A DNA stretch of 64,000 nucleotides from Escherichia coli. Lineage in GTDB: Bacteria > Pseudomonadota > Gammaproteobacteria > Enterobacterales > Enterobacteriaceae. The position numbers and the translations under genes are program-made. Positions 12,933 to 48,636 of this stretch are shown in pieces; the first letter of the stretch is position 1, and each line of letters begins with the position of its first letter. Where the stretch lies: assembly GCF_024298765.1 (NCBI RefSeq), contig NZ_CP101210.1. One strand, written 5' to 3'. The notes below the pieces were generated by a model. It had not been told where the DNA came from. It did no database searches and saw nothing but the letters and a program-made list of their open reading frames with translations.

Positions 12933-13008
12933 GCCCGGATAGCTCAGTCGGTAGAGCAGGGGATTGAAAATCCCCGTGTCCTTGGTTCGATTCCGAGTCC
13001 GGGCACCA
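12933..13008 (+). tRNA. pheU: tRNA-Phe (anticodon GAA)
   Basis: 76-nt sequence GCCCGGATAGCTCAGTCGGTAGAGCAGGGGATTGAAAATCCCCGTGTCCTTGGTTCGATTCCGAGTCCGGGCACCA; anticodon loop ATTGAAAAT; identical to remembered E. coli tRNA-Phe; pheU assignment from yjdC neighbourhood. Confidence 0.97.
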
Positions 13009-14919: not shown

Positions 14920-17900
14920 ATGGATGAAAATGCTTTAGGGTTTGCCTCATACTGGCGCAACTCGCTTGCGGACGCTGAGTCAGGAAAGGGCAGTTTTGAA
15001 CGGAAAGACGCCAAAAATTTCACTCATTGGCATGGGATAGCGGCGGGACGTCTTGACGAAGCGATTGTCAGTAAATTTTTTAAGGGAGAAAAAGACGATG
15101 TCGAAACGGTCGATGTCATCTTGCGCCCAAAAGTTTATTTCCGGTTACTGCAGCATGGTAAGGACCGTTCTGCAGGTGCGCCTGATATTGTTACCCCGAT
15201 AGTGACGCCAGCCTTGCTAAGCCGTGAGGGTTTTTTATATCCGACGCCAGCGACCTCCATTCCCAGAGACCTGCTTGAACCTTTGCCAAAAGGAGCATTT
15301 TCGATTGGTGAGATTGGGCAGTATGACAAATACAAGACGACCCATACCACGTTCTCTATCAACTTTGATGACAGCGTTGATAAGACTGCCGAAACGGATG
15401 AAGAACGGGAAGAACGATATGCAGCCTTGCAGCAGGAGTGGCGTCAATATCTGGATGATTCAGAGAGGCTGCTGAAGAACGTTGCCGGCGACTGGATTAA
15501 AAATCCTGAGCAATATGAACTCGCTGAGCACGGTTATATTGTTAAAACGGCGCAATCTGGCGGTGCCAGTTTCCATATCCTTTCTCTTTATGATCACCTG
15601 CTTGTTTGCAATAAGGATGTGCCGCTCTTCAATCGATTCGCCTCGCGAGAGGTTCATGCTGCAGAGTCTTTGCTGGCCCCTGGAGCAAAATTCAGCGACA
15701 GGCTTGGACACTCCGGAGATAAGTTTCCGCTGGCAAAGGCTCAGCGCGATGCCTTAAGCCATTTTCTGGATGCTAAACATGGCGATATCCTTGCTGTTAA
15801 TGGCCCTCCTGGAACCGGAAAAACCACGCTGGTGCTTTCTATCATCGCCACGCAGTGGGCCAGAGCGGCTCTCGAAAAATCTGAGCCTCCGGTTATTATC
15901 GCGACTTCAACGAATAACCAGGCTGTAACGAACATTATTGAGGCATTCGGGAAAGACTTTTCGCAAGGTTCAGGTGCGATGGCCGGGCGATGGTTGCCAG
16001 AGCTGAAAAGCTTCGGCGCTTATTTTCCCTCAGGCAGCCGTAAAGCTGAAGCAGCCAAAAAATATCAAACTGAAGATTTCTTCAACCAGGTTGAGTCAAA
16101 AGAGTATGTAGAAGATGCACTGCTGTTTTATCTGGAAAAGGCTAAGGCAGCCTTTCCTGAAAAAGAGTGTTCATCCCCTGAAAAGGTCATTGAACTCCTG
16201 CATGGTCAGTTGGCAGCAAAATCCGAGCAACTGATAAGACTGAACGCAACATGGCAAAAGTTAAGCCAGATTCGGGCTGCGCGTGAGCTTATTGCTAATG
16301 ATATTGAGCAATATCTCAATAATTTAAATAAATTACTTTCCGGACAAGAACAAAAAATCACTCTACTGAAGAGTGCTAAAACGGAATGGAAAAAATATCG
16401 CGCCGGTGAATCACTGATCTATTCATTATTTTCCTGGCTTCCGGCGGTTCGCAGTAAGCGACAGTACCAAATACAGCTGTTTCTCGAAGATAAATTAGGT
16501 GCGCTGATTGCAGGAAATCAATGGTCTGATCCTGAAACTATCGAACGTAATATTGATGGGCTGCTCAATTCCGCTGAGCGCGAGCAAACAACATACCGGC
16601 AGCAGATTGACTCCGCCCATGAAATCATTCTTAAAGAACAGCAGGCGGTTCAGGAGTGGCAGAGACTGGCTCTTGATTTAGGGTATGAGGGCGACGAGGA
16701 ACTGAGCTTCTCACAGGCCGATGAACTGGCTGATACGCAGATTCGCTTCCCTGCATTTTTACTGACGACTCACTACTGGGAAGGTCGTTGGCTGATGGAT
16801 ATGGCCAGCATTGATGATCTGCAGGAAGAGAAGAAGAAAAAAGGCGCTAAAGGGGTAACCGCCCGTTGGCAACGTCGAATGAAACTCACTCCATGTGTGG
16901 TGATGACATGCTATATGCTGCCCGGCAATATGCAGATAAGTGAGCACAAAGGACAGCGTAAATTCGAGAAAAGTTATTTGTATGATTTTGCCGATTTACT
17001 CATTGTCGATGAAGCCGGGCAGGTGCTTCCTGAAGTGGCTGCTGCCTCGTTTGCATTAGCTAAGAAGGCATTAGTGATTGGCGATACGGAGCAGATCCCG
17101 CCAATATGGAGTATTGCTCCTGCGATTGATATCGGTAACATGCTGGCGGAAAAAATTCTGTCTGGCAGTACGCAAGAAGAGATTACCGAGAAATATACGG
17201 CAATCGCAGACCTTGGTAAAAGTGCCGCATCTGGCAGCGTTATGAAAATAGCGCAGTTTGCTTCGCGCTATCAATATGATCCCGAACTGGCTCGTGGTAT
17301 GTACCTATATGAACACCGCCGGTGCTACGACAATATTATTGGATACTGTAATACGCTCTGCTATCACGGTAAGTTGTTGCCTAAAAGAGGGCGTGAAGAG
17401 AGCAATTTAATGCCCGCAATGGGGTATCTCCATATTGATGGTAAAGGAGAGCTGGCAAGTAGTGGAAGTCGATATAATTTGCTTGAGGCTGAAACGATAG
17501 CGGTCTGGTTGGCAGAGAACCAGCAAAATATTGAAGCGCATTACGGTAAATCGCTTCATGAAGTTGTCGGTATTGTGACGCCTTTTAGCGCTCAGGTATC
17601 CACTATCAAACAGGTGCTGGGCAAACAAGGTATCAGTACGGGCACGAATGAAAAGTCGCTCACAGTGGGCACCGTGCACTCTCTTCAGGGAGCGGAAAGA
17701 GCGATTGTGATATTCTCGCCAGTCTATTCAAAACATGAAGACGGCGGGTTTATTGATAGCGATAACAGCATGCTGAATGTTGCAGTCTCCCGTGCGAAGG
17801 ACAGTTTTCTGGTCTTCGGCGATATGGACCTGTTTGAGGTCCAGCCAGCCTCATCGCCACGGGGATTACTGGCAAAATACCTCTTTGAGTCAGAGAAGAA

Positions 17901-18435
17901 TGCGCTCTCTTTTGATTATAAAGAGCGTAAGGATTTAAAAACCGCCGGGACCAAAATCTACACACTTCATGGTGTGGAGCAACATGATAATTTCCTGAAT
18001 CAGACATTTGAAAATACCAGTAAACACATCACGATAGTTTCTCCATGGCTGACCTGGCAAAGGCTGGAGCAAACCGGTTTTCTTGATTCCATGATTGCGG
18101 CGTGTTCACGTGGAATTAACGTCACGATAGTCACTGACAGAAGCTACAACACTGAACATAATGATTTTGAGAAGCGAAAAGAGAAGCAGCAGAACTTTAA
18201 AGCGGCGCTGGAGAAACTGAATGCGCTGGGTATTGCTACAAAGCTGGTAAACCGTGTTCATAGCAAAATTGTTATTGGTGATGATGGTTTGCTGTGCGTG
18301 GGATCGTTCAACTGGTTTAGTGCGACACGGGAAGCGCGATATGAACGATACGATACATCAATGGTTTATTGCGGTGATAACCTGAAGGGTGAGATTGAGG
18401 CTATTTATAATAGTCTTGAGAGGCGGCAGGTTTAG
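14920..18435 (+). CDS. large SF1 (Upf1/DNA2-like) helicase fused to C-terminal PLD-family (HKD) nuclease; candidate single-gene anti-phage defence protein (Mokosh type II-like)
   Basis: 1171-aa ORF; Walker A GPPGTGKT at 15802..15825; Walker B-like LIVDEAGQ; motif VI-like [17 protein letters not shown]-terminal HxKxxxxD motif HSKIVIGDD at 18259..18285; first cargo gene after integrase. Confidence 0.7.
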
Positions 18436-28943: not shown

Positions 28944-28998
28944 GGTGATGCTGCCAACTTACTGATTTAGTGTATGATGGTGTTTTTGAGGTGCTCCA

Positions 28999-29274
28999 GT
29001 GGCTTCTGTTTCTATCAGCTGTCCCTCCTGTTCAGCTACTGACGGGGTGGTGCGTAACGGCAAAAGCACCGCCGGACATCAGCGCTATCTCTGCTCTCAC
29101 TGCCGTAAAACATGGCAACTGCAGTTCACTTACACCGCTTCTCAACCCGGTACGCACCAGAAAATCATTGATATGGCCATGAATGGCGTTGGATGCCGGG
29201 CAACAGCCCGCATTATGGGCGTTGGCCTCAACACGATTTTACGTCACTTAAAAAACTCAGGCCGCAGTCGGTAA
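28999..29274 (+). CDS. insA: IS1 InsA
   Basis: 91-aa [46 protein letters not shown]... Confidence 0.95.
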
Positions 29275-29696
29275 CCTCGCGCATACAGCCGGGCAGTGAT
29301 GTGATTGTCTGCGCTGAAATGGACGAACAGTGGGGCTACGTCGGTGCTAAATCACGTCAGCGATGGCTGTTTTACGCGTATGACAGGATACGGAGGACGG
29401 TTGTGGCGCACGTCTTCGGTGAACGCACTCTGGCCACACTGGAGCGTCTTCTGAGCCTGCTGTCGGCCTTTGAGGTCGTGGTATAGATGACGGATGGCTG
29501 GCCGCTGTATGAATCACGCCTGAAGGGAAAGCTGCACGTTATCAGCAAGCGTTACACTCAGCGCATTGAGCGACATAATCTGAATCTGAGACAACATCTG
29601 GCAAGGCTGGGACGGAAGTTACTGTCGTTCTCAAAATCGGTGGAGTTGCATGACAAGGTCATCGGGCATTATCTGAACATAAAACACTATCAGTAA
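29193..29696 (+). pseudogene. insB: IS1 insB with internal stop (TAG at 29484..29486)
   Basis: insB reading frame split into 29193..29486 and 29487..29696; canonical ...FEVVMWMTDGW... reads ...FEVVV*MTDGW... here. Confidence 0.8.
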
Positions 29697-29837
29697 GTTG
29701 GAGTCATTACCTCCTCCCGAACTCAAAGCTATCATACAGATAATTACTGGTTAACCCTATATAGGGCATTTTAAAGTGTTGTGATCTTACCCAGCAATAG
29801 TGGACACGCGGCTAAGTGAGTAAACTCTCAGTCAGAG

Positions 29838-30143
29838 GTGACTCACAAGACAAAACAGTTTCAACCAGTAAAAAAACGTAAACAGCATTCGCCTGAATTT
29901 CTCAGTGAAGCCCTGAAACTTGCTGAACGCATCGGTGTTGCTGCCGCAGCCCGTGAACTCAGCCTGTATGAATCACAGCTCTATGCGTGGCGCAGCAAAC
30001 TGCAGCAACAAATGAGTTCGTCAGAGCGTGAAAGTGAACTGGCCGCTGAAAATGCCCGCCTGAAGCGGCAACTGGCGGAGCAGGCAGAGGAACTGGCTAT
30101 CCTCCAAAAGGCCGCGACATACTTTGCGAATCGTCTGAAATGA
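29838..30143 (+). CDS. IS3 OrfA (GTG start)
   Basis: 101-aa HTH/leucine-zipper ORF ...[42 protein letters not shown]... Confidence 0.85.
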
Positions 30144-31006
30144 AGTATGTCTTTATTGAAAAACATCAGGCTGAGTTCAGCATCAAAGCAATGTGCCGCG
30201 TGCTCCGGGTGGCCCGCAGCGGCTGGTATACGTGGTGTCAGCGGCGGACAAGGATAAGCACGCGTCAGCAGTTCCGCCAACACTGCGACAGCGTTGTCCT
30301 CGCGGCTTTTACCCGGTCAAAACAGCGTTACGGTGCCCCACGCCTGACGGATGAACTGCGTGCTCAGGGTTACCCCTTTAACGTAAAAACCGTGGCGGCA
30401 AGCCTGCGCCGTCAGGGACTGAGGGCAAAGGCCTCCCGGAAGTTCAGCCCGGTCAGCTACCGCGCACACGGCCTGCCTGTGTCAGAAAATCTGTTGGAGC
30501 AGGATTTTTACGCCAGTGGCCCGAACCAGAAGTGGGCAGGAGACATCACGTACTTACGTACAGATGAAGGCTGGCTGTATCTGGCAGTGGTCATTGACCT
30601 GTGGTCACGTGCCGTTATTGGCTGGTCAATGTCGCCACGCATGACGGCGCAACTGGCCTGCGATGCCCTGCAGATGGCGCTGTGGCGGCGTAAGAGGCCC
30701 CGGAACGTTATCGTTCACACGGACCGTGGAGGCCAGTACTGTTCAGCAGATTATCAGGCGCAACTGAAGCGGCATAATCTGCGTGGAAGTATGAGCGCAA
30801 AAGGTTGCTGCTACGATAATGCCTGCGTGGAAAGCTTCTTTCATTCGCTGAAAGTGGAATGTATCCATGGAGAACACTTTATCAGCCGGGAAATAATGCG
30901 GGCAACGGTGTTTAATTATATCGAATGTGATTACAATCGGTGGCGGCGGCACAGTTGGTGTGGCGGCCTCAGTCCGGAACAATTTGAAAACCAGAACCTC
31001 GCTTAG
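30140..31006 (+). CDS. IS3 OrfB (integrase core, DDE)
   Basis: 288-aa ORF with rve-type catalytic core (WAGDITYL...[15 protein letters not shown]...[10 protein letters not shown]...). Confidence 0.85.
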
Positions 31007-31036
31007 GCCTGTGTCCATATTACGTGGGTAGGATCA

Positions 31037-31685
31037 CTAAGCCAGGAATTAAGTCATTTAAAGATATTTCAAATTCACTGGCAATCGTATCTAATCCTTC
31101 CTTATCAATAGATTCAAGCCATAAATTATAATCAATAGGAAGAAGCAACGGATGAGTAAAGTTCAATCTATTTACTAAAGATGATTTAGTATACTCATCA
31201 TTACTTAGCTCTCCAATAAATTCATTATTTATAGAAACAGCATAGTTCTTTATATATGCTGCTCTGTGCAATTGTGACCATGCGATTTTAAACTCTACAT
31301 AAACCTTTTCAGTTTCATCTGCAATGTCTTTCATTTTTATAAAATGAATATCGAAAATATCACCAAGTTCTTCTAAATATGTTTTATATTCTACACCTAT
31401 TGTTTGTTCAGGATCGAAACCGATACCAATAGTAATTACATTATTCAGATCCCCATTATGGACTAGAGATCTAAATCCATCTATGCGCCTGTTCCCCATA
31501 GCTTCTAAATATATAGGATCACACTGCTCACGGTCTAATATTTGTTGAAGATAAAATAATGCAATTAAAATAGTAGTCTTGCCCGCGCTGTTTGGCCCCA
31601 ATAGTAATGTTACAGGTGCAAAATCAATTTCCTGCCGCTCTCTAACAGATCTGAAATTTTCAAGTACAAGTTTAGTTAATTTCAT
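31037..31685 (-). pseudogene. AAA/ABC-type ATPase gene (OLD/Abi-like N-terminus) truncated at 3-prime end by IS3
   Basis: N-terminus MKLTKLVLENFRSVRERQEIDFAPVTLLLGPNSAGKTT (Walker A); ORF runs into the IS3 terminus after about 215 codons. Confidence 0.65.
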
Positions 31686-31693
31686 AATGAACC

Positions 31694-32800
31694 TTACATG
31701 AAATATTTATTCGATAGGTTTGATGCTAAAAGTTGAAGTTGCATTGCGCTTTTATCATAAATGCTTAGTCCTTTTTTTATTTTTTTATAAATAATCTCAT
31801 ACTCATCTTGTAGATGCTTAGGTGGGATTAATATCTCTATATTCTGCAATTCCTGTGCATTAATATTAGCCATGCCAACAATACTTTTACACATATTCAT
31901 CAATGTGATTTTGCCATGGATGGAATTAAGATACCCTGAAATATAGTAGTTATTTCCGATAGAATTAGGTCTAACGCGGATTAAATATCCAGCAAATGCC
32001 ATAGGCCTGTCTTCTTCATACACAGCTGTTTTACCAACAAGTTCCTTACTGTTAGTACGATTGAAAAGAAGATCGCCTTCTTTAACCAAATATTTATCCT
32101 TTTCTTTTACACTGAGATCAAGATATTTTAAATCTGTAAAATCCCACCTACCTTGATATGTTATATTACCCATCCGTAATATAGGATATTCACCAGAATC
32201 AATAGAGGCTTTTGCTGAAGTTCCATAATTTACTGAATCAACCAAGTCGCGAATCGTTCCTTTCGGGAAACGATGTATGTTGTTTGCAGGAGTTCCAAAC
32301 ATCTCTAGAAACTTAGCCCGCAAAAAATCATCAGCCAGTTTGATGGCTTGTTCGCGTTTTTGGCGTATACCCTCAGCTTTATCGAGAAGATCCACAATTC
32401 GTTTCTGCTCTTCAAAAGGTGGTAATTTAATAAATGTATCATAGAGATCGTCTCTATTTAATCCAGGAATACTTGTGGTAATCGTTTTCTTAGTGAGATC
32501 AATTCCGCTCAGAATATAAAACAAGTATCGGAGATCTAACTTATTATTATCTTTGATCTCAACGTAATAAGCAGTATCAATGATCCAACCTCCGTCAGGA
32601 GCCCAGGTAATAGCACCAACGCTGCCTTTGCGACCAATAATTATCGTGGGATAGCTGCAAAGCGTTTTATCGTGGTTGCCGACAATTCCTGAACTACCAA
32701 AAACATGGACACTTCCATTCGATACTCGCTGATCAGCTTTTAATGCTTTTCCGTAGTGAACATTAATAACATCCCCTAACTTCACCATCGCCGAACTCAC
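31694..32800 (-). CDS. hsdS: type I restriction-modification specificity subunit HsdS
   Basis: 368-aa ORF overlapping hsdM stop by 4 nt; two target-recognition-domain-like halves; operon position. Confidence 0.8.
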   Translation of the reverse strand: MSSAMVKLGDVINVHYGKALKADQRVSNGSVHVFGSSGIVGNHDKTLCSYPTIIIGRKGSVGAITWAPDGGWIIDTAYYVEIKDNNKLDLRYLFYILSGIDLTKKTITTSIPGLNRDDLYDTFIKLPPFEEQKRIVDLLDKAEGIRQKREQAIKLADDFLRAKFLEMFGTPANNIHRFPKGTIRDLVDSVNYGTSAKASIDSGEYPILRMGNITYQGRWDFTDLKYLDLSVKEKDKYLVKEGDLLFNRTNSKELVGKTAVYEEDRPMAFAGYLIRVRPNSIGNNYYISGYLNSIHGKITLMNMCKSIVGMANINAQELQNIEILIPPKHLQDEYEIIYKKIKKGLSIYDKSAMQLQLLASNLSNKYFM

Positions 32801-34431
32801 AGCATACCCTCCAGCTCATCCAGATCCGCCAGAATTTCTTTTTCCAAATCTTTTAAGCGCTTTAGTATCACCTTCGGATCTTCATATTCCTCCGCCTGAT
32901 ACACCACTTCTTTATAACGATTGATAGAGAGATCGTATTTCTGCGCAGCAATATCCGCTTTCGGTACAACAAACGCCGCCTGCGTGCGATCTTTAAAATC
33001 AACGCCAGCATCAATCCCTTCCGGGTACTGCTGTTTAAGCAACGAGGCTAACTTCTCACCCATAAAGTTATCAACCGGTAGCCCGCGTAAAGTACGGTAA
33101 TGCTTCCAGCTTGCCAGCAGATGCGGCAGATCGTTGTCTTTTATCGGGTTGCGCTTATCATCCAGGCTGTAGCCATCATTTTGCAGATCGTAGAACCAGA
33201 CCTCATCCGTTTGACCGCCTTTGGTAAAGATCAGGATCGCCGTCGCCACGCCAGCGTAAGGTTTAAATACACCAGAAGGCAGATTGATCACCGCTTCCAG
33301 TTGGTTATCTTCCACCAGCGTTTTGCGAAGTGACTGGTGCGCCTTGCTGGAGCCAAACAGCACGCCCTGCGGCACGATAGTGGCACTGCGCCCGCCCACT
33401 TTCAGCATTTGCAGAATACGCGCCAGGAACAGCAGTTCGGTTTTTTTGGTTTTCACCATTGCCGACAACGTGGAGTCGATATCTTCCTCGTCCAGTGAAC
33501 CGGTAAAAGGCGGGTTCGCCAGAATCAGATTGAAAGCGTTTTTACTGGCCTGAGGGAAGTTAGTGCTGAAGCTCTGGCTCATGGTGTCCTGATAGTGAAT
33601 ATCCGGCGCTTCCACACCGTGCATAATCAGGTTCATAGCGGCGATACGCAGCATGGTGGTATCAAAATCGTAACCGTGGAACATATTGTTATCTACATGG
33701 TTACGCCACGGTGTCAGCAGATCGCCGGTAAAGATTTTTTGCTCTTCCAGTTCGCCACGTTCGTTGGTGCCAATCTCAGTATGGATGGATTCCAGCGAGC
33801 TGTACTTCTCCAGAAGATATTCATAGCTGGTTGCCAGAAAACCACCGGTGCCACAGGCGGGATCACAAATCGTCTCGCCGCGGGCCGGGTTCGGCTCCAT
33901 CATTTCAACCATCGTGCGGATAATGTGGCGCGGCGTGCGGAACTGACCGTTGATTCCGGCAGTGGTCAGCTTGCTTAACAGGTATTCGTAAAGGTCGCCT
34001 TTGGTGTCGCCACGATCCAGCGGCAGGTTTTTGATCACCTCAACCGCTTTGGTCAGTAATGACGGCTTAACAATCTCCAGACGAGCATCTTTCATAAAGT
34101 TGCCCAGCAGCGTCACCTTCGACGCATCGGCCTGGCCAAGCTGACGAAAATGCTGGAATACGCCATCGCGCACCACTTCCATCATCTCATCCGAGCCAAG
34201 ATTGCTATAGTGACTGAAACGGAACTCCTGCTGTTCTGGCGCAAAACGCGGTTTAAAATCAATTCCCGCGATTTGTTTACGCTTCTCGTCGCGTTGTTCC
34301 TGGGTATCCAGCATCCGGGAATACATCAGATAGGTGATCTGTTCGATTACGGTCAGCGGGTTGGTGATACCACCCACCCAGAAATCTTCCCACAGGCCGT
34401 CGATTTTACTTTTTAAGTCACCAGTGATCAT
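32797..34431 (-). CDS. hsdM: type I restriction-modification N6-adenine DNA methyltransferase HsdM
   Basis: 544-aa ORF; SAM-binding [10 protein letters not shown] and catalytic NPPF motifs. Confidence 0.9.
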
Positions 34432-34494
34432 TGTTAGCGTTTATATCCTGTTTTAAATACAAAAGCCCCGCTGTCGGGGCTTGTCATGTGCGTA

Positions 34495-37400
34495 TTATAC
34501 CGTCGCTGCGTCGGTCACAACACCCAGCTCTTCGACTATCTTTTGCAGGCGGGCGATCTGCTCTATATCCGGGAACACACCGGTAACGCCTTCGTTGTGG
34601 ATATGCGTAAAAGGCTGTTCAAAGAGCTGCCGCATTTCAATGGTGCCGTAATCGCGAATGTGGTTTTTCAGCAATGACAGGAAGCGCAGTTGTTGGCTGG
34701 TCAGACTGTTATCAGCGGCGAACTGAGCAAAGCGCACTTCCACCGCGTCGCTGTCCATCCCGATGATGGTACGCAAAAGTTTATCCAGGCTGGCAGTTGC
34801 CTGCGGATAGAACTCTTTCAGTGCCCGGATATCAACGTTGGGGTTCTGGATCAGCACCAGCTTCGCCAGCTCATCCAGCTCGTTTTGCGTGACTGGCTCA
34901 CCGTTGCGGATTTTCTTCAGCACCGGATTTTGCTGGAACAGCGGCTCCAACGCTCCCTGAACCTGCTGGCGATAGAGTTTGAAATCAATCGAGCGGATAT
35001 TAGTTTTGCGGGTCTCTGTCTGGATCAGGTTCGCATCTTCGGTAATATCTACCTGTATCGAACCAAATTTTGGCGTCGCGTCTTTTTCCATCAGGTGCAT
35101 GATGCCGCGCAGATGAATGCGGATATCTTCCAGCTCTTCCAGGCTGGCCTGCTTCCACCAGCCTAAATCACGAAGCTGATTGATCCGCGGTCCTTGCTGT
35201 TGGACCTGCGCCAAATGCGGCGGCAGGCGCTCCACTTTTTCGACGATGACCGGCCAGAGCACATCCAGCTCTTCCGGGTTGGTATAACGGGCAGTTTGCG
35301 CCGCCAGAATATCCATATCAAAGCGCATAGCGTCGCTTTGCCCGCGCACGTCCAGCCACTGCATCAGCGGGGCCAGGACAGATAGCAAATCCTGCTGTGT
35401 TTTCGGGGAAAGCTGGCGCAGCACTTTTTCATCGCTGTACTGCGCTTTTTGATGCCACTTTTCCTGGACGGCAATCGACTTTTCATCCAGTGCATTGATT
35501 TGCTCGCGTAGCTGGTGAGCAACTAAATCCACCGCCTGTTTGTCGAATTTACGTTGCGCAGCGGCCCCCAGCATAACCCACGCTTCGAAGCGTTTTTGTG
35601 CAAGCGATTTTGTCGCTGTGACTTCGGCCTCTTCGGTATGCAGTTCGTGATACTCAAAATTGCCCCAGTGATCGAAAATGCGGAATTTCTGTTTATCCAG
35701 AGGTTTGCCGTTATCGTCGTAACCGTACAACCCCGGACAGAGGCGCGTACCACGGCCAATCATCTGCCAGAACTTCACTTTTGATTTGACCGGTTTGGCA
35801 AAGACCAGATTCACAATTTCCGGGACATCAATACCGGTATCGAGCATGTCAACGGAGATAGCGATGGTCAGCTCTTTGTTGGTGCTTTCATCCAGCCCTT
35901 TAAAATCATCAATCAGTTGCTCGGCGCGGGGATCGTAATTGTCGATGACCTGGCAGAAGCGCCCGGCAAACTGCGGGTACATATCGTCGAATAATTCATT
36001 CAACAGCAGCGCGTGTTTGTGGTTACGGGCGAAAATGATGGTTTTACCTGGCAACTGGCCGTCCCGATCTTTCAGGCCATTTTCCATCAGGTTACGCAGG
36101 ATATAGCGGTTGGTGTCTTTGTTGTAGATCGCCTCATCCAGCGCCTTGCCATCAAACTCCAGCGTATTGGGATCTATGCCTTGTTCTTCCAGCTCGCGGA
36201 TTTGTGCGTCGCTTAATTTCTCCCGTTTGATGCCTTCGCGCAGGAATTCTGTGGTGTGCGTGACAACCTCATAGGGAACCAGATTGTTATCGGCGATGGC
36301 ATCTTCCAGGCTGTAGTTGGCGGTAGGAATACGTCCTTCACAACCAAACAGGCCGAAAGTGGTTTTACTCACCATGTCAATCGGCGTGGCCGTCAGGCCA
36401 ATCTGGAGGGCATCAAAATACTTAAACAGATCGCCGTAAACGTTGTAGATAGAGCGATGGGATTCATCGGCGATGATCAAATCGAAATAACCAACATCGA
36501 AATGGTCCATGATTTTCATCATACCAGGATAGGTGGCGATGTAGATCCTAGCATTCTGCCTGTCTGCTTTTTTCGATTTCCCGACCACATACAGCGGCTC
36601 ATTGGTGAATTGATTAAAGGCATTCGCCGCCTGTTTACGTAGTTCCTTGCGGTCGCAAAGAAACAGGACGCGTTTTACCCAGCGGGCATCAATCATCAGT
36701 TTGCTTAGCGCTATTGCCACGCGGGTTTTGCCTGTACCCGTAGCCTGAACAATTAGCGATTGCCGGTATTTGTTGGTAAACCGCTCGCTGACACGGGCAA
36801 TGGTTTCAAGCTGGTACAAACGTCCGGCAACGGCCTTACCTTCGTTATCTTTTACGTGCGGCACACTGTTCAGCGGAAGACGGGTTTCACGCTGTTGAAT
36901 AAGATATTGCAGGCTTTCCTTGCTGTAGAAGCCAAACACCCGACGCGGGGGATAACCATGAGTTTTATGGTCATCCCACAGCCAGATATCATAGCCGTTG
37001 GTGTAGAAGATGATCGGACGCTGGCCGTATTCTTTTTCCAGCCAGTCTGCATACAGCCGGGCCTGAATTCGTCCTTGCTCGGCATTGACGCTGGTTTTTT
37101 TTGCTTCCACCACCGCCAGCGGTTTGTGTGCCTCATCCCACAAGACATAGTCCGCATAACCGTCTCCGGTCGCGGTAGGTTGTTCTTTAACGGGATGTTC
37201 CTGCGTAACCTGATCGGTATTTTTAAGGCCTTCGCCTACATTCCAGTCAGCAGCAAGCAGGCGAGAGTCAATCAGGCGACGGCGGGTTTCCGCTTCATCA
37301 ATAGAGAGAATATCGGCAACATGCTGGTTACGCGCTCTGGCTTCATTCAGGCGTTGAGTGAGGTGTTCGGCCTTTTCCTGTTCTTGCTGTAGTGCGCGTT

Positions 37401-37911
37401 GCAGCGCCAGTTCGCGCTCACGGCTTTCATCCTGAGCCCTGATTGCATCTTCCAGACGTTTTTCATCTGCACGACCTGAAGATTGTGTTAATGGAGGGAG
37501 TGTAAATTTGGGGCAGTCATCAACATTACCGTGGGCGTAGCGAACATACAGCCAAATTCCCAACAAATACGCTTCTTTGAGCAGCCAGTAAGTATCTTTA
37601 GCTTTGATACGTCCGCCGTGCGCGGCACGGTTGCCATGGATACGCAGCGCATCCATTTTCATGATGATGGCTTCCGGCATCATGCTGGTAAAGACATCAG
37701 CATTCATTAAATCGTAAAGATTAGCCTTAATACCTTCCGGCAACCGCTCCTGACGATACAACCAGCGCACCATCAATTCGGTGTAGTTGCGCAGCTTGAC
37801 CAGACAGCTTTCCGGATCGGAGTGAACATAGCGTTCCGCCATACACGCGAGTTCAGCCAGTTCCGGCCACTGGCTGCGCAACATTTCAAAATTGAGAGAC
37901 TGCTCCATCAA
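34495..37911 (-). CDS. hsdR: type I restriction enzyme endonuclease/helicase subunit HsdR
   Basis: 1138-aa ORF; PD-(D/E)xK-like segment (DYVLWD...VVEAKK), SF2 helicase motifs (ATGTGKT, DESH); upstream of hsdM on same strand. Confidence 0.9.
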   Translation of the reverse strand: MMEQSLNFEMLRSQWPELAELACMAERYVHSDPESCLVKLRNYTELMVRWLYRQERLPEGIKANLYDLMNADVFTSMMPEAIIMKMDALRIHGNRAAHGGRIKAKDTYWLLKEAYLLGIWLYVRYAHGNVDDCPKFTLPPLTQSSGRADEKRLEDAIRAQDESRERELALQRALQQEQEKAEHLTQRLNEARARNQHVADILSIDEAETRRRLIDSRLLAADWNVGEGLKNTDQVTQEHPVKEQPTATGDGYADYVLWDEAHKPLAVVEAKKTSVNAEQGRIQARLYADWLEKEYGQRPIIFYTNGYDIWLWDDHKTHGYPPRRVFGFYSKESLQYLIQQRETRLPLNSVPHVKDNEGKAVAGRLYQLETIARVSERFTNKYRQSLIVQATGTGKTRVAIALSKLMIDARWVKRVLFLCDRKELRKQAANAFNQFTNEPLYVVGKSKKADRQNARIYIATYPGMMKIMDHFDVGYFDLIIADESHRSIYNVYGDLFKYFDALQIGLTATPIDMVSKTTFGLFGCEGRIPTANYSLEDAIADNNLVPYEVVTHTTEFLREGIKREKLSDAQIRELEEQGIDPNTLEFDGKALDEAIYNKDTNRYILRNLMENGLKDRDGQLPGKTIIFARNHKHALLLNELFDDMYPQFAGRFCQVIDNYDPRAEQLIDDFKGLDESTNKELTIAISVDMLDTGIDVPEIVNLVFAKPVKSKVKFWQMIGRGTRLCPGLYGYDDNGKPLDKQKFRIFDHWGNFEYHELHTEEAEVTATKSLAQKRFEAWVMLGAAAQRKFDKQAVDLVAHQLREQINALDEKSIAVQEKWHQKAQYSDEKVLRQLSPKTQQDLLSVLAPLMQWLDVRGQSDAMRFDMDILAAQTARYTNPEELDVLWPVIVEKVERLPPHLAQVQQQGPRINQLRDLGWWKQASLEELEDIRIHLRGIMHLMEKDATPKFGSIQVDITEDANLIQTETRKTNIRSIDFKLYRQQVQGALEPLFQQNPVLKKIRNGEPVTQNELDELAKLVLIQNPNVDIRALKEFYPQATASLDKLLRTIIGMDSDAVEVRFAQFAADNSLTSQQLRFLSLLKNHIRDYGTIEMRQLFEQPFTHIHNEGVTGVFPDIEQIARLQKIVEELGVVTDAATV

Positions 37912-38004: not shown

Positions 38005-38337
38005 TTAATTCTCATATTTAAAGTCGATGTTTATTTTGAGTGTTTCAATATTCACAGTGACTTCGCAACCATGCCAGAATGGCTTTTCTTGTGATTTAAA
38101 GTTATCCACAAACAAATTTCTTAGTTCCACCAAAAGATCTAAAAGTCTTTCACTGGCATCTGCGGTTTCAGTGATCCAATGTTGATTGCCCTGTTTATCT
38201 ACATAGTCATAAGTAAACTCACCACAGTCGCTTTCCGGTTCTAACTTTGCACACAGAATGATTTTGACTGCATCACTAGGAGTGATCGATAGCAACACCG
38301 AACCAATGTCATTATAAATATCCTGATCAGAACGCAT
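38005..38337 (-). CDS. cdiI: putative CdiI immunity protein for the adjacent CdiA-CT toxin
   Basis: 110-aa ORF whose ATG overlaps the cdiA stop (TAATG); position immediately downstream of a VENN-delimited CdiA-CT. Confidence 0.6.
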   Translation of the reverse strand: MRSDQDIYNDIGSVLLSITPSDAVKIILCAKLEPESDCGEFTYDYVDKQGNQHWITETADASERLLDLLVELRNLFVDNFKSQEKPFWHGCEVTVNIETLKINIDFKYEN

Positions 38338-41300
38338 TATTTACCTCCGGGTGCATTGTTAAATACTTTTTCAATCGGGCGACCTCCATCTATCGAATAT
38401 ACTACTTTAAATTTAGCAGGTCTGACACTATCCCCAATATACGATGGCTGAATGTTGACCTTAACCTCTTTTCCTTCACCCAATGCTTTTGCCCAAGTAT
38501 TTTCCATCTGCTTCCAGGCTCCTTTGTTCAGATTTCCATCCATTGGAACAAGGTTCAATTTTTCACCAGGACCATTAAAAATACTGGCTATTAAATGACC
38601 ACCCTCATCTCCATCAAGGCCACACTTACCTGCTTTACATTGTTGATAGCCATTTCTATCCTTTACATTAGGACTAAGAGTTGCTTCAACCTGGCTTGGC
38701 CTTGCCTGAGCATCAGTTTTATAAATTTTATCACCATCTACATGATAAACTTTATTCGGCTGTGGGTTATTTAGCTCTTTGCTCCAGTTCCCTTTACCAC
38801 CTGAGTCTAGCATCAGCTTTTCAAGTGACTCCGCACTGATTTTCTGACCTGTCTGTTTTTCAACAGCCATTAGAGCCTTCAACTCTGACAACTCGCTGGC
38901 AGACATTTTACCAACCGCCGCTACTGTCAGGCCCGCTGGAAGAGCATCGCCAGCGACCATTTCCGCAACCCAGATACTAACTTCATTTGCACACAGCACA
39001 GTATTCGCACCACAGGCACTGACTGCTGCCTGGGCGGCTGCAATTGCTTCCGGAGTCAGAGCAATCACTACCCCACCTGTAGCCCCCCCAACAAGCGCTG
39101 CTGCAATCGCTTTGTTTACAGCCTCACCGCGTTTACATTCAGCCCCGCCAGGGTTAGTCGAGCAGGACGCAATATCTTTGCCATGCTCCTGCACGAACTT
39201 GGTCTGAGTGTCTTCATTACCACCCAGCAGGTTATTCTCAACAACATTCTTCCCAGCAGCAGCTCCGGTAGCCACACCCGCAGTATTCCCACCTGCAACA
39301 CCACCCGCCATACCTGCTGAGATACTCGCCAGCGTACTTAGCGTCTGCTTCTGGTCCTCGGTCAGCTTCGACAGGTCTTTCTCATCCGGATATAAAACCT
39401 TCGCGATTGCACCTGCGATAAGTTCACCGCTCACCGCACCGACTGAACCTGCTGCGGCATTATTTCCCTGAAGAGCCGCAGTCACACCGCCGAGAATGGC
39501 ATGAGCAATGGCTTTCGCTGCATCGTTATCATTAATTCCAGCATTGTGCCCTATGAAGTTTGCCAGTTCCGGTGCAGAAGCTCCGGCCAGAGCACCCGCT
39601 AAATTCCCCCCAGCCAGTCCCTGAAGCGCGGCTGTCGCGGCCTGGATACCCCGCTGCATATCGCTACCGGTACCATACTTTTCCTGTTCCTTTTTGTATT
39701 CCGGCGTATCACGCAGTTTTGCCAGATATGCCTGCCGCTGTTCTTCCGTCGTATCCGCCGGAACAGGCCCATATTTATCCTGCGCAGCCTTCAACGCATT
39801 CAGTTCACCCTGCGTCCGCGCGATATCCGCCACCTGACTGCCTATGTCACTGATAAGCCCCACTGTCTGCAGACGCCTCTGCTCTTTCTCCTTGTCAAAT
39901 ATCGGGCTGATACTGTCGTTGGCGTGTTCCGGGTCACGGCTCAGGTTCGCCAGATTCTGCTTCTGATTGTCCCTGTCCCGGATGGTGATAGTGCCTTCTG
40001 CCACTGCGGCCTGAGTCGTTCCTTCCGCATGTCCGCTGTGACCTCCGGCGGATATCATGCCACCCGGCATGTTACCCTGAAATTTATCCCCGAAGCTGCC
40101 ACCACCGCTCAGACTGATTCCACTGTGACTGACTTTATAATCCGCTTCGTTGTGAAGGTCACTGAACCCCAGCGTTCCGGTATCCAGGTGGTTTTTATCC
40201 GGTGTGGCAGTGGAGGCAATCACCGCACCATCCAGTTGGGTATGTTTACCCACTGTGATGTCGAAGCCGCCGTCACCGGCAAACATTCCGGTTTGTTCAG
40301 CAACGGAGTCAAAGCGGCTCTTCATCTTATCCCGGGAGGCAGCGATGTAACCTGAGCCGGTCATGGAGCCAAAGGTAAAACTGCCGCCGGCAGCCACGCT
40401 GGTCTGTTTACTGTCGTACTTACTGGTGTCCTGCTGGCTGCTTATCAGCAGGTCGTGGCCCACATCGGCGATAATCCTGTTGCCGTTGACCTGAGCACCG
40501 TTCAGTACCGTATCCCGACCACTGTTGATGGTGACGGTTTTACCGCTGTCTATTGTGGTTTCAGTCCACTCAGTACCGTTACCTTTCTCGCTGCCTTTTG
40601 CCGCATTAACGCTGGCAAAGACACTGATACCGGCACCGTTACCACCGGCACCGATACTGACACCCACGCCACCGCCACTGCTGCTGTTCCTGCCCGTTGT
40701 TTTTTGTGTGTTTGCCGCGCCACTCAACAGAACATCATTCGCAGCATCCAGGTTTGTGTTACCACCGGCCTTAAGCTGGCTTCCGGCAATCACAATATCT
40801 CCGCGGTTATCGCCCCTGTTTTTACCGGTTGCGACAACAGACAGATTATTCCCGGCATTCAGCGTACTGCCGGATACTGTGTCACTTTCAGAATGTTGTT
40901 GTGATTTCGATTTCTGGGTGGTGAGCGACAGGCTGACTCCCATCGCATTCGGGTCACCGGTTGCGGAGGCCATTGCCGCAGCCTGTCCGGCCTGCACACC
41001 AGACAGCGCTGTCTTTGTAGCCTGCAGGGTTTTCAGACGGCTGTCACTGCTCTCCTTCGTCTCCTGTGCACTGGTGACCGCATTATTGATGGCACTGCCC
41101 ACTGTGCCGGAAAGGGCAACCGTCAGCCCGCTTTTCTTCTGCTCAAATTTTTCGTCCACAGTACGACGGTCATGCCCCGGGTCAACCACCACACTGTCAC
41201 CGGTAATGCTGATATCCCGGTTCGCAATCACATCCGAACCGCTGATATGAGCCTGTTTGCCCGCGGTAATACTGACATTACCGGCAGTGGAGCCGATGGT

Positions 41301-41801
41301 ACTGGCACTCTGACTCTGCGTTGTCCCGGCCTCGCGGCGGTCGTGCGTTGTCTTACTGCTGCCAATGGTGAAGCCAATACCGCCGGTACCCATCAGACCG
41401 GATTTCTTCGTTTCCTTAAAGCGCCAGGACGTATCTGTACTGGTGGCAGCAAGAACATCAACATGGTTACCCGCCGCCAGTGACACATCCCGGTCAGCCA
41501 CCACATCCGAACCCTCTACCGTCAGGTTATCACCGGCGTTAACGGTCACGCGGTTCCCCGACAGCAGGGAGCCTGCTTCACGGGAGGCACTGTTCTCACT
41601 GATGGTGTGGGTGGTTTTCTTACTGAGAAAACCTCCGCTTTTTTTCTTCGTTTCCAGATAGTGATAGTCACTTTCTGTCGCCGTGGTCAGGGCGACATCA
41701 CGACCGGCATTCACACTGATATTGCCGGTTGCGGTAACGGATGACGCAACAGCGGTGATACGCATACTGAAGAGCATTCCGTATAAAGATTCAGCTGGCA
41801 A
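38337..41801 (-). CDS. cdiA: 5-prime-truncated contact-dependent inhibition toxin CdiA fragment (FHA-repeat region, pretoxin VENN, variable CT toxin domain)
   Basis: 1154-aa ORF rich in Gly/Ser/Thr beta-helical repeats; VENN motif ([11 protein letters not shown]) encoded at 39231..39242; about 298-aa CT after VENN; no TPS domain or cdiB upstream. Confidence 0.8.
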
Positions 41802-45266: not shown

Positions 45267-47369
45267 CTAATTTGTAATTCTAAAAATCCGATCAACTGTT
45301 CTTAAAGTTGTCTCTCTATGTGCAATAATCACCCGGGTGATATTCATCTTTTTTATAGCAGCATTCACGAAACGTTCACTTTCTGTATCAAGAGAACTTG
45401 TAGCCTCATCCATAAATAATATTCCAGGTTTCCGGTATAAAGCTCGGGCAATGAATATACGCTGTTTTTGACCGCCGGAAAGACCTTCCCCCAGTTCACC
45501 TATTAACGTTTCATACCCCATTGGCATTTTCATTATCACATCATGAATATGACTTGCTCTGGCACATTCTGTCATCCATTCGTCGTCTGTTTCTTCTGCA
45601 AACCCACAGATATTTTCACGAATTGATCCTGAAAATAGCCGGTCGTCCTGCATAACACAGGCTATCATACGGTGATAATTATTTATTCCAAGTTGACGTA
45701 TATCCGTGCCATTAACCAGTACTTTTCCACTATCTGGTTCAAACAGTCCACATAATACTTTCATTAATGTGGTTTTTCCGGCACCGGAGGCACCAGTTAT
45801 AGCCACACTTTCTCCCGGAGCCACAGACAAATTCAGACCACTGAATACCTGTGCTGACTGGCTGTCATACCGGTAGCTTAAATCAGTGGTTTCCAGTGAA
45901 ACCGGGCTCATGTCAGCAACGATTTCAATTTCCGGTTTCTTTTCTTCCTTTTCATGTAGTGCAATATCTGCAATGCGCTCATTATGCAGACTCATTATTC
46001 TCAGTTGAAGAAGAAAACTGGTCAGCGAAGCAACCCGATCCGAAAACTGCCCACGAAAAGAACCAAATGCCACAAACATCCCTATTGTCATCTGATTATC
46101 GATCACAAGGCTTGCACCCAGCCATAAAATCGCCACCTGATCACAGGCGGCAACAAAAGTATTTATCCCCCCGAAGAGCAAATCCATCCTGGTTAACTTA
46201 ATACCTGAATTGATCGCATCTATTTTCAGGTTAAGCCAGTGTGTTCCCCGAATCCCAGCCATACCCTGGATTTTTACCGTGGCAATACCATACAGGCTTT
46301 CCATAAAATAGGAGCTGGCCCGGGCCCCCCTGACAAGAGTTTCTTCCGATATTTGCCGGTAATAGCCGTATGTCACCAGACGAATAAGAACGTAAACCAT
46401 GGTAAAACCGAGCACTATCCAGGTAAGATATCCTCCATATAACAGCATCATCACAAAAACACCCACAACCATAATACTGTCCATGATTGCCCCAACAACA
46501 CAGGTGGTAAAGGTGGCCCTCAAAGTGTCAAGGGAGCCAAAACGCGACTGGATATCACCTAATTTACGGCGTTCAAAAAACGCCAGCGGCAGTCTGAGAA
46601 GATGGTTAAACAGACCCGACTGCCACTGTATATTGATGAGCGTGCTCATAACCAGTGAGGACCATGCACGCAGCATACTCACCGCGGCCCTGAGCAATAT
46701 AAAGAACATCAGGCCAGCAGAAATAAGCGTCAGCAGCCCTCTGTCCCCCGCCGGAATCGCATGATCCATAACCAGCTGAGTTCCCACCGGCATTACCAGA
46801 TTGATTGCTTCAATTACAACTGACAGACAGAAAATTTTCGCCAGTGTTCTTTTAATACCGTAAATACTGTTAATCAGTGAACGGAGACTTATGCGGGTCT
46901 GCTGGGTTTCCGCCAGGAATTCACTTCCGGGCCAGACCTCAAGTGCAATGCCCGTAAAATACCGGCTCATTTCCTCCCGACCGAGATATCTTCTGCCTCT
47001 GGCCGGATCATGCAGTACATAACGGTTACGCTTTACGCTGACCAGCACGACGAAGTGACTGAAATCCCAGTGGAGAATACACGGCATTTTGAGGGCACCA
47101 AGTTCATCCAGCTCCAGTGAAAGAGCCCGGGTGACCATCCCCAGCTGCTCCGCTATTCCATTGATTCCTGCAAGGTTTGCTCCACGGGCCGAGAGATTAA
47201 ACTTCCGGCGAAGAGATATCAGGTCAATATTCTTACCAAAATGACCGCATATCATTGCCAGGCAGGCCAGTCCACATTCAGCGGTCTCCGTCTGATGAAT
47301 AACCGGAACACGACGTCGCCAGCGCATATCAAGCTGATTTATAATTTGTCTGAAATTCCCGTTAGTCAT
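45267..47369 (-). CDS. mchF: microcin export ABC transporter with N-terminal C39 peptidase domain (CvaB/MchF family)
   Basis: ORF track 45267..47387; near-identical over long stretches to remembered CvaB ([32 protein letters not shown]...); Walker [10 protein letters not shown], signature LSGGQKQR. Confidence 0.9.
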
Positions 47370-48636
47370 TGAGCGGTCCTGTTGCACTGTGTTTCATGTC
47401 ATAGAAAGGAGAAAGCATCCACTGGTAAATACGCCTTTTTTCCAGAAATAGTGTACTTTCGGCTTTCATTCCATTTTCCAGAGGGAGGTATTTTTCGTCA
47501 TATCTGATAATCTGCTTTTCAGGCATCGCAATGACTTTATACCAGGGAACAGAGTCGCCCGGCGTATTCTGTGGTGCTCCCTTATAGGTCAACATTTCCT
47601 GTGTTGACGCAGGAGTCCTGGATATAGTTTTAACCGTAGCAGAGAACTGCCCAAATTTTTCTGCCGGAAAGGCTTCATAACGAATATTCACTTTGTCACC
47701 AGCCGAAATATAAGGAACAGCATCATTCGGGACCCAGAGAATAAGATAATAGTTTTCAATGTTCTCAGGAATAACCTGCAGAAGGCTGTCTCCGGTATTG
47801 ACCATTTGCCCGACAGTGACACTCAAGGAGTCAACTTTCCCGTCAGTCAACGCCCGGATAATGATTTCGCCCTCCACATCAGTGTTAACCAGTTCTTTCT
47901 GTAACTCATACCGTTGCAGTTCCATCTGGTAGATACGGTTATCAAAATCTGCAGCCTGAGTCTGAATCTGACTCTCCAGAGTGGTTATCTGCAGGGCATT
48001 CTGTTCGTTCTGTCCGCTCAGGCTGAGAAGATTGTTTTGTTGCTGATAATATAATGCCACCTGGTTAGTTAACTGATCTTTATTAATCAGCCCTTTTGCC
48101 TGATAGTTTCTGTAATTCTCCATATTGTTTTTCATTATTTTTATCCCTTCCTCTGCACGCTGTATAATATCTGATGAGCGACGAAACGCATCTGTGTATT
48201 GCAGGCGTTGTTTTTCCAGGGTATCTAGCGTTATTTTTTTACTTTCTTCCAGACGGGAAATAATGTTGTCCACACGAACCAACTGGTTTTCTATATCCCG
48301 ACGATGATTATCAGTGACAATACCACTACGTGTACTTTTACTGATGTCAATCAGATAAACAGGATCCCCTTTTTTTATCAACTGTCCTTCATGAACAAAC
48401 TGCCTGACAACAAATCCCTGTACACCTGAATATATATTGACAGCTCTTGGCCAGGTTGTGACCTCACCACTGACATTAACACGGCGGCTATAGGTACCAA
48501 CAATAATGAACATCAGAAATGCCGTAATAAACACTATGCTTCCCAGCATGATTAACCATAGTGGTATTCCGGGAAGTAATATTGCCCGTCCCTGCCACTT
48601 CATTTTTCTGTTTTCTAAAGCATCCTGACGAAACAA
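47362..48636 (-). CDS. mchE: microcin secretion membrane-fusion protein (CvaA/MchE, HlyD family)
   Basis: 424-aa ORF; N-terminal TM anchor, coiled-coil region; matches remembered CvaA. Confidence 0.9.

Follow-up and report, generated by a model that had tools for sequence, protein, structure and literature searches.

The window analysed in this study is a stretch of 64,000 nucleotides of Escherichia coli contig NZ_CP101210.1, whose setting is a genomic island at the pheV tRNA of E. coli. Its subject is a type I restriction-modification (RM) operon, hsdR-hsdM-hsdS, together with the gene that follows hsdS, which begins as an ABC-type ATPase gene and runs into an insertion sequence (IS) of the IS3 family. 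The open reading frames (ORFs) were taken from the six-frame ORF list of the window, and the features are collected in Table 1. The RM operon is apparently intact judging from its coding sequences, the ATPase gene is a stump, and the comparison with other E. coli genomes points to the loss of a two-gene module encoding an NsnB-like ATPase and a partner with a predicted nuclease-type fold.

Table 1. Features of the RM locus and of its surroundings in the 64-kb window.
Feature	Coordinates	Strand	Remarks
hsdR	34495..37911	-	intact, 1138 aa from TTG; RefSeq start is ATG at 37908
DUF4145 domain of HsdR	37579..37842	-	residues 24-111; Pfam PF13643, E 3.7e-8
Terminator-like hairpin	34463..34482	-	8 pairs (6 G-C) and T-rich tail, in the 63-bp hsdR-hsdM gap
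hsdM	32797..34431	-	intact, 544 aa; stop overlaps hsdS start by 4 bp
hsdS	31694..32800	-	intact, 368 aa
Truncated NsnB-like ABC ATPase gene	31020..31685	-	221 aa; codons 1-216 genuine (31038-31685)
IS3-family element	29782..31036	+	orfA 29838-30143, orfB 30140-31006; RefSeq 'IS3 family transposase'
70-bp orphan remnant	29712..29781		between IS1 and IS3-family element; RefSeq: 63-bp 'hypothetical protein'
IS1 copy	28944..29711	+	part of IS cluster (IS1, helix-turn-helix gene, ISEc8/IS66)
tRNA-Phe	12933-13008		near MkoC-like gene
Island integrase	13206-14468		near MkoC-like gene
MkoC-like gene (Mokosh type II)	14920-18435	+	1171 aa; near island integrase and tRNA-Phe
cdi region	38005-41801	-	cdiI-like immunity gene 38005-38337 (RefSeq YezG family) after 1154-aa C-terminal cdiA piece
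705-aa ORF	45267-47387	-	low-GC stretch, 29-43% GC at 43-46 kb

The truncated ATPase gene and the RM operon

The ATPase stump starts 8 bp past the hsdS stop and encodes a protein beginning MKLTKLVLENFRSV...GPNSAGKTT. Residues 1-216 are 100% identical to the 540-aa protein WP_000778955.1 (tblastn, 31685-31038), and codons 217-221 (VILPT) together with the stop codon derive from the inverted repeat of the IS3-family element. This element has the terminal inverted repeats TGATCTTACCCA / TGATCCTACCCA, of the form TGATC(T/C)TACCCA, and overlapping orfA and orfB, and its right inverted repeat is the truncation point of the ATPase gene. The stump matches the PADLOC models PDC-M55A (2e-17), AriA and NsnB, and it keeps Walker A (G30-K36) only, the conserved motifs past residue 300 being missing. 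Since only this 221-aa, Walker-A-only product is encoded, the module is non-functional in the window, the RM genes being untouched.

Neither the remaining 324 ATPase codons nor the partner gene was found anywhere in the 64-kb window by blastn or tblastn, and the IS cluster has taken the place of everything from the ATPase 3' part through the partner gene and onwards. The IS3-family element is flanked by TTG and CTA without a 3-bp duplication, as is expected after deletion or inter-IS recombination, and the block of IS1, 70 bp and IS3 recurs in E. coli genomes lacking this RM locus (matches H49-H55, covering query 445-2541 only). Because of the lost 3' sequence, the absent target-site duplication and the independent occurrence of this block, a simple IS3 insertion was excluded, and IS-associated deletion or inter-IS recombination is the better description of the event. 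Strain A1.S1.65 was considered as a precursor and rejected, as the pair is intact there and the IS3 copy lies further downstream. Recurrence of the junction in 13-14 complete E. coli genomes that are independent of each other shows that it is not an assembly artefact.

These results largely agree with a first-pass annotation of the window. The minus-strand hsdR-hsdM-hsdS order that it described is confirmed by the ORF coordinates, PADLOC and Pfam, and the entry of the ATPase gene into the IS3 terminal repeat, placed there at about 215 codons, falls after 216. Its proposal that an RM-linked defence gene had been lost by IS3 insertion is retained for the cut at the end of the IS3-family element and has to be revised in two respects, as the event was not a simple insertion and a two-gene module, not one gene, was lost.

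The RM operon itself is working-looking, and its products match the expected models over their full length. HsdR matched PADLOC REase_I (7.6e-274) over residues 3-1126, HsdM matched MTase_I (1e-192) over residues 1-544 and TIGR00497 hsdM (8.8e-22), and HsdS matched Specificity_I (1.6e-112) over residues 1-368. Within HsdR, Pfam places DUF4145, HSDR_N, ResIII (1e-33), Helicase_C and EcoEI_R_C (6.7e-21), and the recognizable motifs include a PD-(D/E)xK site (D...E269-A-K271) and the superfamily 2 (SF2) motor motifs GTGKT at 392, DESH at 482 and QMIGRGTR at 716. The locus encodes two of the features that define a type I RM system, namely an HsdR that joins an SF2 translocase motor to a PD-(D/E)xK nuclease, and an HsdM N6-adenine methyltransferase encoded together with an HsdS specificity subunit. 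In NCBIfam, HsdR came nearest to PRK11448 (334 bits, cut-off 729) and to the EcoAI family NF046051 (231 bits, cut-off 550), and the operon is on this evidence classed as EcoEI/EcoAI-like (type IB-like), at some distance from the EcoAI equivalog. The hairpin between hsdR and hsdM is terminator-like by consensus match only.

The base composition changes within the locus, with 32-40% GC across the ATPase stump and hsdS (31000-33000) and 50-52% across hsdM and hsdR, a contrast that suggests a mosaic origin. Compared with the intact-module strain H9Ecoli (locus L001), the window lacks a counterpart to the N-terminal target recognition domain 1 (TRD1) region of hsdS (L001 7869-8288), and the remainder is 99.2% identical; because TRD1 differs, the DNA specificity of the window HsdS is probably different from that of the intact-module strains. 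At the other end of the operon, the extension before the PD-(D/E)xK region of HsdR, to which the first-pass annotation gave no family, was identified as DUF4145 and contains the motif RIHGNRAAH at residues 90-98. DUF4145 belongs to the HEPN superfamily, and its fusion to REase and SF2 helicase modules has already been reported (PMC3710099). The extension is therefore a known fusion, and apart from it the RM operon is ordinary.

The intact pair in E. coli and across phyla

A megablast survey of 5,426 complete E. coli genomes detected the ATPase 5' region in 272 (~5%), always beside hsdS, and the 3' part with the partner gene in 259, of which 251 are nearly complete. The match to the window reaches into the IS repeat in 13 of the 272 and ends exactly at window base 31037 in the others; the window allele, with its IS3 junction, is thus carried by 13-14 genomes, corresponding to the gap between 272 and 259. 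Most E. coli carriers have an intact ATPase gene 8 bp past hsdS. In H9Ecoli, whose locus spans NZ_CP029180 2184111-2192888, this gene has 1623 bp and encodes WP_000778955.1 (540 aa), and it overlaps by 1 base the partner gene, of 897 bp, which encodes a 298-aa 'hypothetical' protein, WP_000499115.1. The module has been damaged by other IS elements as well: in strain 035152 (L045) an IS1 interrupts the tail of the ATPase, and both the partner gene and hsdRMS are intact, and strain U90 (L046) has ISKpn26 and a deletion into the partner gene, again with hsdRMS intact. Together with the window allele, these make three independent IS-mediated losses among the 272 carriers.

For the 540-aa ATPase, Pfam returned a split AAA_15/AAA_21 match and a C-terminal DUF3696 match (E 0.0077), and the best PADLOC matches were PDC-M55A (1.4e-40), NsnB (3.2e-37, covering the C-terminal residues 344-535), HEC-03B (6.7e-25) and AriA (5.5e-22). 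Matches to GajA, Old and PtuA were confined to the Walker A region, those to GajA and Old covering residues 1-46. An alignment of 30 homologues of 468-816 aa revealed invariant positions in Walker A (G30...K36), P309/R311, a signature-like motif G407xG409..Q412 (VGxGxSQ), Walker B E431-Q-P-E434 (EQPE), H438, an H-loop E464-T-H-S-E468 (ETHSEH) and a tail motif W527-P-x-G-F-F-x-E (WPxGFFxER), and all of these except Walker A lie past the truncation point. The AlphaFold2 (AF2) model of the ATPase (pLDDT 78) matches the ABC heads of GajA, SMC/Rad50, the retron Eco8 effector and PtuA. The lost C-terminal part is the second half of the ABC fold and a DUF3696-like tail, with no fused TOPRIM.

The first-pass annotation had described the N-terminus as that of an OLD/Abi/ABC-type ATPase, against the background of Abi/OLD/PARIS-like ATPase genes linked to type I RM loci, and had asked whether a C-terminal TOPRIM/DUF4435 nuclease was missing from it. 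An ABC/OLD-type ATPase and a missing C-terminus are both upheld, while Menshen NsnB/NsnC, and not PARIS or OLD, are the closest relatives and the missing part is not a fused TOPRIM. The annotation had also named two findings that would speak against a truncated defence gene, namely homologues that are stand-alone proteins of about 220 aa, or a housekeeping ATPase family; the E. coli homologues have 540 aa, so the truncation holds, and the family turned out to be defence-associated according to both PADLOC and its neighbours. The intact gene pair that it suggested looking for in strains without the IS3 was found there, as the ATPase and the 298-aa partner.

The partner is encoded by one translationally coupled gene, separate from that of the ATPase, and it matched none of the Pfam, NCBIfam and PADLOC families and had no sequence match in the PDB. 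A word-indexed protein search recovered relatives in Enterobacteriaceae only; an exhaustive search of representatives recovered 777 clusters at 50% identity (E<=1e-3), nearly all of proteins of about 300 aa and all annotated 'uncharacterized'. The AF2 model, built from an alignment with 77 relatives, has a pLDDT of 96.6 and shows a PIN-like domain at the N-terminus and a phospholipase D (PLD)-fold domain at the C-terminus, and a Foldseek search of AFDB50 returned 297 full-length matches, essentially all 'uncharacterized'. Conservation is concentrated in D159 (92%), which comes after a beta-strand, and in H241 (99%), N242 (83%) and R243 (100%), which come before one. The PLD fold is present with a site of the MIT_C/PB-PLD1 kind, H241-N-R243 (H-x-R) plus D159, as opposed to the canonical HxK(x)4D. 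In the PIN-like domain, E4 is the only member of the usual acidic set with at least 90% conservation; for this reason the domain probably serves as an adaptor and not as an active RNase.

A scan of one genome per species with a 12-sequence partner alignment yielded 36 loci, whose gene content was determined with phmmer against their ORFs. These loci come from more than ten phyla, with Gammaproteobacteria, Desulfobacterota, Myxococcota, Acidobacteriota, Binatota, Gemmatimonadota, Planctomycetota and Calditrichota among the lineages represented. The ATPase gene lies directly upstream of the partner gene in 34/34 informative loci. In 13-14 loci hsdR-hsdM-hsdS lies directly upstream of the ATPase gene, in 5 more RM genes lie a few kb upstream, and about a dozen (~40%) have no RM genes within 10 kb. 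Avs4 (L024) or CBASS CapV and a cyclase (L041) stand between the RM genes and the ATPase gene at two loci, and L023 has a Dsr1-like gene upstream. A metagenomic partner homologue with 35% identity is preceded by the same order of DUF4145-HsdR, HsdM, HsdS and ATPase. All HsdRs of the related loci have an EcoEI_R_C-like C-terminus and 8 complete ones a DUF4145 N-terminus, the pair being found beside both long (HEPN-bearing) and short HsdR forms. At the RM-less loci, none of 10 upstream neighbours matched PADLOC NsnA; they were RtcR-like, parE, TPR or unlabelled.

Unexpectedly, a gene for an RtcR-like CARF-AAA+-HTH sigma-54 regulator is present in 24/36 loci (PADLOC RtcR_PspF2, up to 1e-201). It lies directly upstream of hsdR in 10 RM-linked loci (L010, L011, L013, L016, L020, L022, L026, L029, L034 and L035) and next to the ATPase gene, directly upstream or divergent, in RM-less loci (L014, L017, L019, L021, L025, L028, L030, L031 and L038-L040). 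It is absent from the Enterobacteriaceae versions and was not found in the 64-kb window. The association of RtcR-type regulators with RM has already been noted (PMC4012209; PMC11090510), that literature gave no connection with the present ATPase-PLD pair, and no papers were found on RtcR, type I restriction and CARF together. At L021 (4699-10912) and L028 (4798-10948), two tandem pairs of ATPase and partner-like genes follow one RtcR-like gene, and the second kind of partner there, of 325-371 aa, is no more than a remote relative of the first (E 1e-5 to 1e-14).

The island around the RM locus holds further genes of interest. The 1171-aa MkoC-like protein matches PADLOC MkoC with E = 0 (residues 1-1169 on model positions 1-1135/1136), and as it spans the model end to end, the pheV island has a second, apparently intact defence gene. 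The 705-aa ORF has a partial match to PADLOC Mad3 (2.7e-26, C-terminal 75 residues only) and one to Mad8 (1.5e-9), and is a possible further defence gene of the ATPase type, complete or fragmentary. In the cdi region, cdiA has its full length (9.7 kb) in strain XB2, and the window and strain ACN002 have an ORF from the 3' 3.4 kb only, so that the contact-dependent inhibition (CDI) toxin gene of the window appears to be truncated.

Proposed function of the pair and competing explanations

Combined, these results favour, with moderate confidence, a reading in which the window holds an intact EcoEI/EcoAI-like RM operon and the dead remnant of a two-gene module, the intact form of which would be an autonomous anti-phage module of ABC ATPase and nuclease. 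The defence role is suggested by analogy with Menshen NsnB-NsnC, PARIS AriA-AriB, Septu PtuA-PtuB and Gabija. On this model, the ATPase would form oligomers that grip the effector, with the C-terminal tail and the PIN-like adaptor as points of contact. Infection would provide a cue that shifts the ATP-dependent state of these oligomers, and the PLD-fold domain, released or switched on in this way, would degrade nucleic acid and bring about abortive infection. The pair is probably co-transcribed with hsdM-hsdS yet autonomous, because ~40% of the loci have no RM genes and unrelated genes stand between hsdS and the ATPase gene elsewhere.

Several points weigh against this reading. The best PADLOC match of the partner is to NsnC at E 0.0032, which was obtained at a lax threshold and is not significant, and the DUF3696 match of the ATPase is weak. 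The H-x-R site resembles that of MITD1 MIT_C, which is not known as an enzyme, so that the nuclease activity is a prediction only. The proposed contact between ATPase and partner is borrowed from published AlphaFold3 models of Menshen, and no paper mentions the accession numbers of the pair. Finally, strain 035152 retains an intact partner gene beside a damaged ATPase gene, suggesting that the free effector is not obviously lethal or is not expressed there.

The strongest competitor, which is nevertheless considered unlikely, is that the pair is a guard coupled to restriction, using the type I enzyme as a sensor in place of NsnA or monitoring it in the manner of PrrC-EcoprrI. It would remain latent while HsdRMS works and fire once restriction stalls or the enzyme is inhibited by a phage anti-restriction protein (Ocr, Stp, ArdA-like), and this back-up would have been lost in the window strain. 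Such a coupling would agree with the position of hsdRMS of one clade (EcoEI_R_C) directly upstream in 13-14/34 loci from distant phyla, with junctions of 8 bp or overlapping genes, and with the lack of an NsnA/DUF262 gene at any locus examined, and it has precedents in PrrC-EcoprrI and in PARIS, which is triggered by Ocr and Stp. It is at odds with the ~40% of loci that have no RM gene within 10 kb, where the pair lies, for example, beside parE or behind an RtcR-like gene, with the unrelated defence genes between hsdS and the ATPase gene at up to five loci, and with the occurrence of the pair beside long as well as short HsdR, which argues for a modular and not an obligate association.

A more elaborate version, regarded as slightly more doubtful still, is a composite immune system that would unite the PIN-PLD protein and the NsnB-like ATPase with an EcoEI-like enzyme, and in which the RM complex would replace NsnA as DNA sensor or be guarded by the effector arm. 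In many phyla it would be switched on by the RtcR-like CARF/sigma-54 regulator, for which cleaved RNA could be the signal, with the HEPN domain of HsdR as its possible source. If true, this would be an undescribed and widespread layered system of restriction and abortive infection, of which E. coli would have a regulator-less form, stripped in the window strain to plain restriction.

A selfish role of the pair in addiction or stabilisation, similar to that of a toxin-antitoxin system and carried along with mobile RM islands, is improbable. The coupled two-gene architecture with a nuclease-fold protein would suit such an element, as would the abundance of IS elements in the pheV island and the three independent IS disruptions in E. 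coli, which fit a costly element; the neighbours, however, are overwhelmingly defence genes (RM, Avs4, Dsr1-like, CBASS, RtcR-like), the closest families are validated defence ATPases, and the intact partner beside a damaged ATPase in 035152 speaks against a simple toxin and antitoxin. The idea that the 221-aa stump is itself functional, for example as a stand-alone P-loop regulator, can be put aside as very improbable, since its start codon, ribosome-binding context after hsdS and open frame (RefSeq CDS WP_021527168.1) have to be set against aligned homologues that are all at least 468 aa long, with signature, Walker B and H-loop past residue 300, a frame that stops inside the IS repeat and an allele limited to 13-14 near-identical genomes.

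Under the favoured reading of an autonomous ATPase-nuclease module, the window strain has kept a working-looking type I RM system and lost the attached second module to IS activity. The stump thereby leads to a sizeable unnamed protein family (the 777 clusters), with a confidently modelled PIN-like and PLD-fold architecture and always with an NsnB-like ATPase. The E. coli-native pair, present in ~5% of complete genomes, is suited to testing RM-linked ATPase-nuclease pairs as restriction back-ups, and its importance grows if the RM enzyme proves to be its sensor or guarded partner.

Comparison with known systems

The RM operon shares with EcoAI/EcoEI (type IB) the gene set hsdR-hsdM-hsdS and an HsdR with PD-(D/E)xK nuclease, SF2 motor and EcoEI_R_C, and differs in that the window HsdR scores under the equivalog cut-offs and has the extra N-terminal HEPN/DUF4145 domain. 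Genes for ABC-type NTPases and nucleases are linked to type I RM in PrrC-EcoprrI and with RloA/RloB-type genes, and the present pair resembles these in being a predicted NTPase-nuclease unit genetically attached to a type I RM operon, in keeping with a second-line defence paradigm. In contrast, PrrC is a single polypeptide with an anticodon nuclease and is encoded between hsd genes, whereas here two genes follow hsdS and the nuclease fold is another.

PARIS, which is triggered by anti-restriction proteins, likewise combines an ABC ATPase, matched here by AriA, with a separate nuclease effector and frequently resides in islands of this sort. Its AriB effector is a TOPRIM/DUF4435 protein, whereas the partner described here has a PIN-like and PLD fold and no Pfam or PADLOC match, and the ATPase is larger than that of PARIS, with another insert and tail. 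OLD and GajA are characterized by a TOPRIM fused to the ATPase C-terminus, and the 540-aa protein consists of the ABC halves and a short tail. The identities of PARIS, OLD, Gabija and PrrC were therefore rejected, as the pair has no TOPRIM or anticodon-nuclease domain. MADS was rejected as well, the matches to Mad2, Mad3 and Mad5 being weak, partial and far under the cut-offs.

The HEC-03 and PDC candidates were described by Payne et al. 2024 (bioRxiv 10.1101/2024.01.29.577857), and the ATPase matches both HEC-03B and PDC-M55A. The effector matches no PADLOC effector model; the PIN of HEC-03 is an active, VapC-like one that comes without a PLD domain, and PDC-M55 is a three-gene cassette, on which no papers were found.

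The closest relative is Menshen, whose three components NsnA, NsnB and NsnC were reportedly introduced by Millman in 2022. Menshen NsnC is an effector with an inactive PIN domain (inPIN) and a PB-PLD1 domain with a D/E ... H-D-R site, and NsnB is an ABC ATPase with DUF3696 whose tails clamp inPIN in AlphaFold3 models (PMC12065111). The pair agrees with this arrangement in its ATPase, an NsnB match composed of ABC and a DUF3696-like helical tail, in its partner, which has the NsnC layout of a PIN-like domain (inactive, as predicted above) and a PLD/MIT_C-type nuclease-fold domain with a conserved acidic residue and a PB-PLD1-like H-x-R, and in the adjacent, overlapping genes. It differs in having no NsnA (ParB-DUF262 plus ParBDB) at the loci examined, where hsdS, RtcR-like or unrelated genes lie upstream, and full Menshen identity was rejected for want of an NsnA gene. 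The Menshen survey took the ParB-DUF262 protein NsnA as its anchor (PMC12065111) and so would not have caught an NsnA-less pair.

Overall, the class of ABC ATPase plus nuclease defence systems has precedent (PMC12065111; bioRxiv 10.1101/2024.01.29.577857), and the pair, not covered by the Pfam, NCBIfam and PADLOC v2 effector models, is a Menshen-like NsnB/NsnC combination without NsnA, typically located on EcoEI-like RM operons. It thereby adds a sensor-less, RM-attached form to the Menshen/PARIS/Septu theme.

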